24,000 nucleotides of DNA from an uncultured bacterium (GCA_963827625.1 CAWHBS010000003.1:806306-830305), one strand, 5' to 3'; shown: positions 18,609 through 23,030, numbered from the stretch's first letter. Numbers and translations are program-made. The notes: generated by a model not told the origin, from the sequence alone.

Positions 18609-21600
18609 CTAACGGCTGACGCTGCCTAGCCAGCGGCGGTACGGCAGCTTCGGCCCGGCCTCGACCACGATCTCGACCGAGGCCGCGTTGTTGCCGATGG
18701 TCGAGTCGTTGGGGCTCTCCTGCAGCTGCGCCACCAGCGTATAGGTGCCCGGCAGGCTTGGCGCCTGCCAGCTGAACCAGCCGTGTCCGCCGCGCTGCTT
18801 GTCGATGCCGCGGATCAGCGCCGTGCCCGCCACCAGGCCGCCATGTTCGGGCTCGCCCTGGTACACCGTGACGCGCTCGAAGCCGGCCCAGTTGGTGTTG
18901 GCAAACGCCGACACGCGGATCGCCACCCGGTCGCCCGCGCGCACGGTCGTCTTGCCGCCTGCCACGCGTCCGCCCGCGGGCAGCGGGGTGAGCGAGGCGC
19001 GGCGCAGCTGGATATCCGGCCCGCGCTCGGCGCTCAAGCCGCTCGACAGCGCGCACGGGTCGTCGGCGCCCAGCATCGGGCCCGGCATCGTGGCGGTGTT
19101 CACCGTCAGCAGGCCCCAGCCCTCGTTGTTCTGCCCGTATTCCAGGTTCGTCGCCGTCACCAGCGGCACGCCGCTCTGCGTCGGCGGCGGCACCACATAC
19201 AGCGCCTGGCTGCCCGCGACCATGCCGGCGCGGTACTCGGTGCCGGCCGGCGGCTGCGCGCCGCTCTTGTACACCACCACCGACGGCGTGGACGTCGTGG
19301 TGTCCTGGACACTGGCCTTGGCGCCGAAGCTCAAGACCGCCGCGCTGCTGTTGATCGCCGCCGCCAGGCCCACCGCGATGTTGTCGTCGGTGCCCTGCGA
19401 GGTGTAGCTGACCGTATCGAGGACCGTGCCGCTCGCGTCCTGCAGCGCCAGCGTCACCGTGGTGCCGGCGCTTAGCGGCTGCTCCGGCGTCACAATCACG
19501 TTGGGCTGGCGCCAGCCGTGCGTCTGCCCGGCCGTGTTGGCGGGGTCCGCGGCGTCGAGCACGACCCACACGCGATATGTCTGCGATGGCGACCCCGCCG
19601 GCAGCTGCAGCGTGCTGGTGTCCAGCTGGTAGCGCACCGCGGCGTAATTGTCCAGCACCTGGTCGTTGCTGTCCTCCTGCCCGTGGTACGGAATCGACGT
19701 CGCCGCGACCGTCCCGGCGGTGACGCGCGGACCGGTGGCCAGGTTGCTCGCGGGGTCGATCGGCTCGAGGTCGAAGCGCACCGGCACGCTGCCGGTGGCG
19801 CTGCCGACGCTGTAGTTGTACACCCGCGCGTCGAGCAGCACCGGCTGGCCCAGCTTGACGCCGTCGACCACGTCGTAGGTGTTGGTGACCGGGTTGGGCG
19901 TCGCGCTGCGCACCCAGAAGCCGCGTAGCTGCTGGGCGTCGAGCCAGTCCTTGTTGAGCTCCCAGCCGCGCGCGCCGCCCGGCTGGTTGAACTTGCGCGG
20001 CAGATTGAGCGCCGGGTCGGCACCCGGGTAGCGCGCCGTCCAGAAGGAGCCGCCGTTGTCGGTGCCGGCGGCGTGGGCGACCTTGAGCGTGCCGTCGCCG
20101 GTGATGTACATCATCGGGTTGAAGTGATACGGCACCTTCGAGTCGTTGTTGACCGGGATGTTGATCGTCAGCGCCTGGGATTCGTCGCTGGCGTAGGTCG
20201 TCGTCGACGACTCGCCCCAGCTGTAGCCGCCATGCACCTCGGCGTTGACGCAGCCGCTGGAGCCGACGCCGGCCACCGTGAATTTGAAGTTGGCCTCGAT
20301 GTCGAGGCTGTCGCTGAGCTTTTTGGTCCACGAGCGGCTATCGGCGTTGGTCTGCGACTGCTCGATCGCCAGCTGCAGGGAGTTCTGGTTGCCGCCGAAG
20401 GAGAACTGCTGGCCCTCGTCGGTCAGCGGCGAGGAGACGCACCAGCGAATGCCGTTTTCGCAGCGCACGGCGTTGGCGCCGCCGGTGCTGTCGGTGGGCA
20501 GCAGCCACGGGCCGATGTCGCCGGGTGTAAAGGCGTCGCCGGCTGCGACGGCGGGATAGGACAGCAGGTTGCCATTTTCGTGCGGCGGCTGGTAGCCATA
20601 GGTCTGCGCGGCGAGGTCGTCCATTTCCTGGTAGGGCGTGTCGTTTTGGCGCGGCAGGGAGAGCTCGTAGTAGGTGTACGGCTGGCCGGGATTGGGCGAG
20701 GGCGTGCCGTAGGCGGGATAGCGCCAGATATCGAAGACCTTGGAGCGGAAGCGCAGCGAGTTGCCGCCGGCGGTCTGGGTGGTGACGGTGGAGGTGTAGA
20801 TATCGGAGGTGCCGACGTAGCTGCTCTGGTCTTGCTCATAGTCGAAGTTGAATTGATTGGTGACCGAGGCCGACAGATCGGCCTTGGCGATCAGGAAGTC
20901 GCCGTCGACGCCGAAGGTGGCGTTGGCTTTGACGGAGGTGCCGGCGTTCCAGTCGGAGCTGGCGGCGCCGCCGACGGCGAAGGCCTTGGCGCGGGCGTCG
21001 GTGTAGCCGACATTGAAGGCGGGCGAGCGGCTGACGTTGACCAGGCCGCCGTTGGGGAAATAGTCGAGGTGCTGGGGCGGCTCCTGGAGGATCCAATCAA
21101 AGGACTGCGGCACCTGCACCACCGTATGCATCGGCGGTCCGAGCTGCAGCGAGTCGCCGTCGAAATCGAACGACAGCAGCTCGACGCGGGCCCGGGGATC
21201 GCCGCAGGGCAAGAATCCAGAAAAGGGGTCCACCTCGATAGTCGATTGCGCGGCGAGGGCAAGCTGCCCGTTGGCGGTGTTGGGGTCGATCGTCTGGTCG
21301 ACCCGATAAAGATTGAGCTGCGTCGTGCTGGTAGATTGGGCATCCGATTCCCAGCCTCCAAAGGCGAGGCCGACGCCCCACAGCGGGCTGGCCGGGTTGG
21401 CCTTGACGCCGGCCCAGTTCCCGGCCACCAGCTCAAACGCAGCATACCCCTGAAACGTACTCCTGTCGTGGCACAGCGTCTCGTTTTGTGAGCTGTAGCT
21501 ATTGAGGGTCCAGTCCGTCGGCGGGTTTTGGCCCGGCGAGTTGGGCGAGGCGAGATCCCACAGCTCCACTTGAATGGTGACCCGCCCATTATTCGTATCG

Positions 21601-23030: not shown

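Follow-up and report, generated by a model that had tools for sequence, protein, structure and literature searches.

The 24,000-nucleotide stretch of DNA from an uncultured bacterium analysed here (GCA_963827625.1 CAWHBS010000003.1:806306-830305; hereafter the window) carries on its minus strand a gene for a 1473-residue protein, the largest gene of the window and the subject of this study (Table 1). Codon-position GC content (GC at third positions, GC3, 0.87) identifies the frame as coding, and the exact protein is present in the public NCBI/ENA collection. The frame is open upstream as far as TTG 23111; ATG 23030 is favoured as the start because GAGG precedes it and a classical signal peptide begins there. 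The N-terminus reads MQRTWKRPW-ISLLMLAAVAGSTLA, with AxA-type sites after residue 24 or 32, and an N-terminal hydrophobic signal is present in 92 of 107 full-length relatives. The protein has no transmembrane helix, LPXTG tail or thioester motif, and a regular-expression scan found neither a MACPF signature nor a CDC undecapeptide in it. The initial annotation of the window, made from sequence alone, had described this open reading frame, its rank as the largest gene, its Sec signal peptide and the lack of an obvious anchor (transmembrane helix or LPXTG), and all four statements hold. Neither a sigma-70-like promoter nor a convincing terminator was found around the gene. Searched on its own, the protein gave only a sub-threshold FG-GAP match and a weak GbpA_2 match in Pfam, nothing credible in NCBIfam (one match at E=0.14, far below the cut-off) and nothing among PDB sequences.

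Table 1. Features of the large gene, its product and the upstream region, in window coordinates
Feature	Residues	Position	Strand	Basis and remarks
Whole coding sequence	1-1473 and stop codon	18609..23030	-	GC3 0.87; ATG 23030, stop 18609-18611
Sec-type signal peptide	1-24 or 1-32	22935..23030	-	Read from sequence: K/R-rich n-region, h-region ISLLMLAAVAGSTLA, TLA/TLA cleavage motifs
N-terminal region with FG-GAP / integrin-alpha-like beta-propeller	33-629	21144..22934	-	D-x-D-G loops 186 (GDVDGV, degenerate), 276 (GDMDGDG), 365 (ADFDGDG) and 622 (FDFDGDS); family profile; FG-GAP Pfam matches in relatives
Unannotated beta-rich core, defining the family	630-1033	19932..21143	-	No Pfam, NCBIfam or PDB sequence match; 1234 representatives; AlphaFold models; conserved motifs
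Hairpin 1 (HP1)	673-752	20775..21014	-	AlphaFold strands E49-82 and E97-128; family-wide period-2 pattern
HP1 amphipathic tip	694-731	20838-20951	-	Flanks W694 and F729/Y731 (family consensus Y/Y)
Hairpin 2 (HP2)	883-958	20157..20384	-	AlphaFold strands E259-295 and E298-334; period-2 pattern
HP2 amphipathic tip	901-938	20217-20330	-	Flanks W901 (Y in most relatives) and W938
CARDB-like Ig domain 1	1034-1165 (RGFW...VYNYS)	19536..19931	-	AlphaFold pLDDT >90; profile match 2kut; sub-threshold Pfam CARDB in relatives
Inserted alpha/beta domain	~1170-1320	19071..19523	-	Relatives P0001, P0004 and P0008 only; GbpA_2; AlphaFold helices H629-646
CARDB-like Ig domain 2	1340-1462	18645..19013	-	Profile matches 3idu and 2kl6; AlphaFold pLDDT >90
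Small open reading frame	85 aa (MTSLSS...YRVYLLRLWRDGNGPWHASLQ...RFADLEALFAFL)	23108..23365	-	Syntenic in L001 (8570-8791); no Pfam match
Three heptamers TCGGACC/TCGGACC/TCGGCCC, exact 11-nt spacing		23423..23451	+	58-86 nt upstream of the small open reading frame
Divergent SARP-like regulator gene, 5' part (ends at window edge)		23558..24000	+	GTG 23558; weak Trans_reg_C, E=0.015

At the centre of the protein lies a beta-rich core of about 400 residues, which defines a family of its own. Its conserved motifs are QEPPKH, NVSR, DD, DIWRYP, YQPxHENGNxLSYP and PDPALNLP, and the core of no family member matches any Pfam model. Word-indexed homology searches returned only three relatives, then eight, and a third search added none, so that the family became visible only with an exhaustive profile search. 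With a profile of the conserved core, HMMER was run exhaustively against 1.84 billion cluster representatives and, counted at 50% identity, found 1234 family representatives at E<=1e-3, 916 at E<=1e-10 and 321 at E<=1e-30. The family of at least 1200 sequence clusters comes mostly from uncultured Chloroflexota, Acidobacteriota and Actinomycetota of soil, sludge and freshwater; it extends over at least eight phyla, and its phyla and classes comprise Chloroflexota (Anaerolineae, Caldilineaceae, Chloroflexia), Acidobacteriota, Actinomycetota, Gamma- and Deltaproteobacteria, Planctomycetota, Verrucomicrobiota and Bacteroidota. When one genome was scanned for each species, 51 family loci were obtained. 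No relatives were found in IMG/VR viral contigs or in plasmids. A typical member has an N-terminal propeller of ~510 residues, a conserved block of ~540 residues and a C-terminal domain of ~200 residues. The only names attached to members are 'hypothetical protein' and 'RICIN domain-containing protein' (Herbiconiux solani, Compostimonas suwonensis), and literature searches found no description of the core family. One deltaproteobacterial locus (L017) holds two full-length family genes in convergent orientation, at 6213-10643 (+) and 11415-15638 (-). In several loci (L020, L041) the family gene is split by frameshifts, as is the P0001 gene call in L001, the locus of the closest relative.

This core is a new and widely distributed domain family, and is neither propeller nor Ig (immunoglobulin) repeats. 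A Ser/Thr-rich centre of roughly 350 residues had been singled out in the initial annotation; a distinct beta-rich domain is indeed present, with a length nearer 400 residues (~630-1033). Two outcomes that would have spoken against a special centre, namely that it consists of more propeller or Ig repeats, or that homology makes the protein an adhesin or glycosidase, were not encountered: the core is a distinct domain with neither enzyme nor adhesin homology.

The domains on either side of the core are of recognisable type. For the N-terminal region, the Pfam FG-GAP score of the 1473-residue protein is 21.0 bits against a cut-off of 22.1, and relatives exceed the threshold. The family profile finds integrin alpha-V propellers at E~1e-6 and, at E=1.8e-20, the secreted esterase 9oee, which contains FG-GAP; PL11 lyases are also among the PDB matches of its N-terminal part. 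On these sequence criteria, calcium loops together with a family-model match, the region is an FG-GAP / integrin-alpha propeller, in agreement with the earlier proposal of an integrin-like propeller from four FG-GAP calcium loops. The C-terminus is labelled CARDB-like because the family profile matches the CARDB-like PDB domains 3idu and 2kl6 (E~2e-4) and 2kut; Pfam CARDB (PF07705) has no match in the 1473-residue protein and is sub-threshold or rare in relatives. AlphaFold builds both domains as Ig-like sandwiches at high per-residue confidence (pLDDT >90). The C-terminus, to which two CARDB/Ig domains had previously been assigned, holds three domains, with an insert of ~150 residues between the two CARDB-like ones. 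This insert, with its weak GbpA_2 match (E=5.8e-4, residues 1173-1243), recurs in few relatives only: P0001 and P0004, which are close homologs, and P0008, which is 32% identical. The C-terminal tail LPYRRWLGSVSR (residues 1461-1473, window 18612-18650, minus strand) is kept in two close homologs as LPYRRFLGAISRGPQ and is not present in the wider family.

Two AlphaFold models, neither of which includes the propeller, describe the core. The first (residues 590-1473, 85 aligned sequences, predicted TM-score 0.84) shows a beta-rich core with exactly two low-confidence segments, 681-746 and 922-943. In the second (core only, residues 625-1035, pLDDT 74.8) those segments become two very long hairpins with confident bases. 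HP1 is formed by strands 673-706 and 721-752 (34 and 32 residues) and HP2 by strands 883-919 and 922-958 (37 and 37 residues). Elsewhere the core is made up of long strands (12-17 residues) and a loop-rich stretch that carries the most conserved motif, YQPxHENGNxLSYP. All three Ser/Thr-rich alternating peptides quoted in the initial annotation fall within HP1 and HP2 and are modelled as amphipathic beta-hairpins.

The sequences of the hairpins vary across 85 relatives, while their pattern does not: each of the four strands retains the period-2 alternation of hydrophobic and polar residues and its aromatic flanks. Ala/Val/Ile alternate with Ser/Thr/Lys/Glu at positions 696-710 and 714-731 of HP1 and likewise at positions 905-918 and 919-932 of HP2, and the hydrophobic face is free of charge in 74-98% of sequences. 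The hairpins are depleted in Pro (0.9% vs 6.2%) and Arg (0.9 vs 4.2) and enriched in Ser, Lys and Gly. Their lengths are nearly invariant and change in four-residue steps, with 38, 39 or 42 residues between the aromatic markers of HP1 and 34, 38 or 42 between those of HP2 (38 in 76 of 129 sequences). A step of four residues corresponds to two residues per strand, and the inside/outside register is therefore preserved. By comparison, the segment between HP1 and HP2 varies freely (109-132 residues). The amphipathic stretch starts 22-23 residues from the base in HP1 and HP2 alike, which places the two tips in register. When the HP1 unit was aligned with the HP2 unit by hhalign, a weak alignment in register was obtained (probability 38%, P=3e-4), as would fit an origin of the two units by internal duplication.

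Profile searches connect these hairpins, weakly, with aerolysin-fold toxins. The search of 177,635 PDB sequences used four family profiles that differed in depth. A core-biased profile built from 50 sequences gave nine matches: three in the core, three to CARDB-like domains on the C-terminus, and gp41 noise. All three core matches are aerolysin-fold toxins, namely LSLa (1w3a, E=0.008, over HP2), Dln1 (4zno, E=0.13, over HP1) and Cry23Aa1 (E=0.37, over HP2). The other profiles returned Dln1 (E=0.017), LSLa (E=0.017) and the pore-forming lectin CEL-III (E=0.27, over HP1), together with a few matches at E>0.25 to non-toxin chains. Among 23 relatives, one (L024) has a match to Pfam Aerolysin, PF01117 (E=0.007), at model positions 115-186, which we take to be the stem-loop region. 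HP1 also gives weak matches to the OMP_b-brl and Porin_3 models (in another member, to an outer-membrane-protein beta-barrel). Two core units were further compared by hhalign with an ETX/MTX2 alignment of 11 members (epsilon-toxin and ten plasmid-borne relatives). Unit 1 (residues 630-800) aligned over 100 columns (P=7e-4, probability 26.5%) and unit 2 (residues 840-995) over 120 columns (P=4e-3, probability 8.3%), both in register with the insertion hairpin of epsilon-toxin and its flanking Ser/Thr tracts. For four control regions taken from the 1473-residue protein, P was 0.19-0.63 and the probability 0.1-0.3%. The resemblance of the hairpins to aerolysin-type stems is weak at the level of sequence profiles but appears specific, and it is the sole database resemblance at E<0.25.

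The dimensions of the hairpins fit this comparison. With 32-37 residues per strand, their reach is estimated at ~90 Å, and the barrel of aerolysin is reported to measure 87 Å (PMC4947156). The aerolysin-type prestem is an amphipathic hairpin with Ser/Thr-rich flanks that is able to extend into a long barrel (PMC4947156). A hairpin of this description, as used to recognise the aerolysin / ETX-MTX2 superfamily, occurs twice in the core, with pattern, aromatic flanks and lengths kept in 85-129 relatives. Since each hairpin unit resembles the insertion-hairpin unit of these toxins, the core looks like a duplicated, two-stem version.

We tentatively read the product as a secreted beta-pore-former, lectin-like and equipped in each subunit with two stem hairpins of aerolysin type, a reading drawn from sequence and models to which we give somewhat less than an even chance. 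That the protein is also the founding example of an unrecognised class of bacterial beta-pore-formers, with a duplicated aerolysin-type unit, two stem hairpins per subunit, targeting by a propeller and, in some lineages, display on the wall for contact-dependent attack, and with an architecture intermediate between aerolysins with one hairpin and MACPF/CDC/gasdermin proteins with two, is a further suggestion from the same data and a rather doubtful one.

Several observations weigh against a pore-former. (i) Every match to an aerolysin-type protein lies below the accepted threshold: PF01117 in L024 scores 16.1 bits against a cut-off of 24.3, the 1473-residue protein itself has no match to that model, and hhalign with the untrimmed full profile gives a probability of only 1.7%. 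(ii) Foldseek gave no good superposition of the model with any PDB structure, and against aerolysin structures it returned E values of 0.07-0.2 and TM-scores of 0.05-0.07. (iii) The hairpin tips have pLDDT values of 30-45 and are unstructured in model 1 and extended in model 2; their modelled conformation rests on poorly predicted regions, and the propeller may pack against the hairpins. (iv) Amphipathicity alone is not diagnostic, as an ordinary Ig control strand scores 3.97 against 3.8-4.8 for the hairpin strands. (v) The likeness to toxin stems could stem from shared composition and not from ancestry. (vi) No activation propeptide or protease partner was identified for the protein. The likeness to aerolysin and ETX-MTX2 toxins that the initial annotation saw in the centre has therefore fared unevenly. 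The only database resemblances are to aerolysin-fold toxins, with the hhalign matches to ETX/MTX2 well above the internal controls, but all are sub-threshold; the AlphaFold model of the central region has long beta-hairpins, but Foldseek finds no convincing aerolysin fold for it.

Direct observation covers the anatomy of the domains, how large the family is, the conserved pattern and length of the hairpins, the weak but specific toxin similarity and the synteny of the regulator in the closest relative; beyond this we infer oligomerisation, membrane insertion, a target and a mode of regulation, as follows. The FG-GAP calcium-loop propeller would dock the protein on the surface of a target cell, aided in relatives by ricin-type lectin, dockerin, PASTA or Xlink modules. 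The ~400-residue core would then oligomerise, and HP1 and HP2 would extend and join a common beta-barrel with four strands per subunit. Outside the membrane, the barrel would be built from the proximal, Ser/Thr-rich half of each hairpin, and the distal alternating stretches of ~15 residues, bracketed by Trp/Tyr, would cross the bilayer. The CARDB-like Ig domains may serve as stalk or spacer and, in anchored relatives, as a tether to the wall of the producer.

The strongest alternative is that the protein is an adhesin or scaffold of the cell surface or matrix, of the kind represented by Vibrio Bap1/RbmC or integrins, in which the propeller and Ig domains would bind ligands, the hairpins would be sticky loops or ordinary structural elements that attach it to hydrophobic surfaces, lipids or polymers, and no pore would be formed. 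We regard this as possible but on the whole unlikely. A combination of FG-GAP and CARDB-like Ig domains is typical adhesin architecture, and relatives add further modules, RicinB (9 of 32) as well as dockerin, PASTA and Xlink, that serve surface binding or anchoring and are mostly glycan-binding. Hemolytic lectins share such a modular build with added glycan-binding domains, and the modules count in favour of a pore-former too. About 22 of 107 full-length relatives (~20%) carry LAxTG/LPxTG sortase signals or tails with a transmembrane segment and RRKR, so surface display fits this part of the family, and such display, typical for an adhesin, would be unusual in a released toxin; the architecture and the anchors thus also count against a pore-former. 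The 1473-residue protein itself, however, has no anchor. Foldseek of the 884-residue model retrieved integrin legs, alpha-2-macroglobulins, C5a peptidase and RbmA, but these matches have TM-scores of ~0.1 and cover Ig arrays only. The propeller protein Bap1 has a 57-residue loop that is reported to bind lipids (PMC12965690). Against an adhesin, no adhesin domain resembles the core, and toxin stems are all that it resembles in the PDB at E<0.25. Moreover, the quantised lengths, the aromatic brackets and the matched register of two ~38-residue hairpins, kept in more than 100 divergent sequences, exceed what sticky loops would need.

A second alternative, which we consider improbable, is that the family builds a giant self-assembling beta-barrel or ring of the producer's own envelope, similar to a secretin or S-layer, and not a weapon. 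The best Foldseek matches of the core model are indeed secretins (InvG, GspD, PilQ, pIV; E 1e-6 to 1e-4, probability up to 0.99), whose subunits also contribute long hairpins to large barrels, and some relatives are tethered to the cell. These superpositions nevertheless have TM-scores of 0.08-0.13 and a root-mean-square deviation of ~27 Å, a resemblance of long hairpins only, and no member has a Pfam Secretin match. No secretion-system or pilus genes are conserved beside the family gene, and the family occurs alike in phyla generally regarded as monoderm and as diderm. The lectin and propeller modules would also point outward, to foreign surfaces. A secreted enzyme (polysaccharide lyase, hydrolase or esterase) with an active site drawn from the propeller or from the core motifs QEPPKH, HENGN and DD is very improbable: the best N-terminal profile matches are PL11 rhamnogalacturonan lyases and a secreted esterase, all with FG-GAP propellers, but they span generic FG-GAP blades only; a GH43 gene lies downstream in the closest relative, but is not syntenic in the window; and no catalytic-domain family is detected in any member, His817/Glu818 of HENGN are Trp/Ser in relative P0003, and most invariant positions are occupied by structural residues (Pro, Gly, Tyr, Trp and Asn). 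An alpha-2-macroglobulin-like protein was also considered and rejected, as the 1473-residue protein has no thioester motif.

Clustering of the neighbours of the family gene in 53 loci found no conserved partner, whether immunity, protease or secretion gene, and a conserved operon partner for immunity or activation was rejected on this ground. The protein therefore appears self-sufficient, and a partner-free gene is compatible with a self-sufficient toxin acting on non-self membranes. The regulators near the gene differ between subsets of loci: NarL-type with histidine kinase, CadC-like with TolB-like propeller, or BTAD/SARP-like. A NarL-type response regulator adjoins the family gene in eight loci (L003, L015, L027, L032, L033, L041, L045, L050), and a histidine kinase lies near it in six (L003, L007, L015, L027, L041, L045). 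In five Acidobacteriota loci (L009, L026, L035, L042, L047) the adjoining gene encodes a CadC-like winged helix fused to a TolB-like propeller, and six Acidobacteriota loci share an unannotated, putatively secreted neighbour of ~1000-1400 residues.

In the window, the large gene is preceded by a small open reading frame, with which it is probably co-transcribed, and by a divergent regulator gene. The exact 85-residue product of the small frame is present in public assemblies; among the 53 loci the frame occurs in the window and L001 only, and it was rejected as a family-wide partner. Synteny with L001 comprises exactly three genes, the regulator, the small frame and the large gene, and ends at the stop codon of the last. 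Co-occurrence of orthologs with the small frame and the SARP gene, put forward in the initial annotation as a check, thus holds for the closest relative and is not conserved across the wider family. The L001 ortholog of the regulator (5527-8301, minus strand) has 925 residues, with Trans_reg_C, BTAD (E=8e-23), NB-ARC and WD40 domains. The regulator, with its winged helix, is by this ortholog a STAND protein and more than a minimal SARP, which suggests that the operon is activated in response to a signal. The heptamer pattern upstream of the small frame has one match, as against none in 100 shuffles, for a pattern that was defined after it had been sighted. A second pair at 11-nt spacing, GTCACGATC twice (23498-23517), lies in the same intergenic region, and the equivalent site of L001 has a different 11-nt-spaced repeat, TGGATAGAG twice (8484-8503). 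The difference between the two repeats would fit regulator sites that co-evolve with their proteins. SARP proteins bind heptamer repeats at 11-nt spacing, and the predicted SARP control is for this reason plausible in the lineage of the window and L001, although such control is not a trait of the family. The divergent SARP-like STAND regulator would then probably switch on expression of the small frame and the large gene through the heptamers upstream of both.

Genes downstream of the large gene are unrelated (luciferase-like monooxygenase, glyoxalase, purA and others). Elsewhere in the window, a 358-residue open reading frame at 12826-13902 (+) combines an N-terminal DnaJ (J-domain) with a weak protein-kinase match, an unusual pairing. 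The product of 3729-5561 (+) is an MFS transporter that ends in a fused cyclic-nucleotide-binding domain, and at 6430-8616 (-) an ABC1 atypical kinase has an N-terminal segment like a holin with four transmembrane segments.

If the pore-forming interpretation is correct, the family would represent a new structural solution for beta-barrel pores, with two aerolysin-like stems per subunit and more than 1000 sequence clusters, whose members are at present annotated only as 'hypothetical' or 'RICIN/FG-GAP protein'. It would extend the aerolysin superfamily to phyla with few known toxins, bear on the relation of one-hairpin to two-hairpin pore formers, and point to weapons of predation, defence or competition in abundant environmental bacteria. 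Large, stable beta-barrels would also be of practical interest as nanopores. Even as part of an adhesin, the core merits a family definition, since it is large and conserved, has a broad taxonomic range and lacks a model in both Pfam and NCBIfam.

Four groups of known proteins invite comparison. Secretins share with the core model, as its best structural matches, the long paired hairpins that build giant barrels; membership was rejected, given a TM-score of ~0.12 despite a Foldseek E of ~1e-6, no family-model match and no secretion genes nearby. Bap1/RbmC and integrin-alpha-like propeller surface proteins with CARDB share the propeller, the Ig-like C-terminus and, with relatives, anchoring and lectin add-ons, but are without the core domain that defines the family.

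MACPF/CDC proteins and gasdermins insert two transmembrane beta-hairpins (four strands) per subunit, with a long excursion between them, and the order HP1, ~130 residues, HP2 in the core is similar. The absence of a MACPF signature, noted in the initial annotation, extends from the 1473-residue protein to 158 relatives scanned by regular expression. No Pfam MACPF, Thiol_cytolysin or Gasdermin match was found in the protein or the relatives scanned, and the 50 best Foldseek matches of the core model include no chain of a MACPF, CDC or gasdermin protein in its pore state. AlphaFold renders the hairpin segments as beta or coil, whereas soluble MACPF/CDC proteins have helical bundles. Membership of MACPF/CDC was rejected, with neither signature nor undecapeptide nor Pfam match.

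Aerolysin / ETX-MTX2 proteins (LSLa of Laetiporus sulphureus, zebrafish Dln1/natterin-like, Cry23Aa1, epsilon-toxin) differ in having one hairpin per protomer where the present core has two; no described member of the aerolysin family is known to have two. Here, too, a core of ~400 residues is set within a 1473-residue protein with FG-GAP propeller and CARDB-like domains, no activation propeptide is evident, and one relative in five is attached to the cell that produces it. Membership of the superfamily is not established, although the proposed pore-former would act in the manner of these toxins. These toxins are likewise secreted and modular, with a binding module followed by a beta-rich pore module of long strands. 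Their hairpin, like those of the core, is amphipathic, free of Pro and rich in Ser, Lys and Gly, with Thr mainly in the flanking tracts and with aromatic flanks. The length of the core hairpins approaches that of the aerolysin barrel, and the weak profile similarity falls exactly over the toxin stems.

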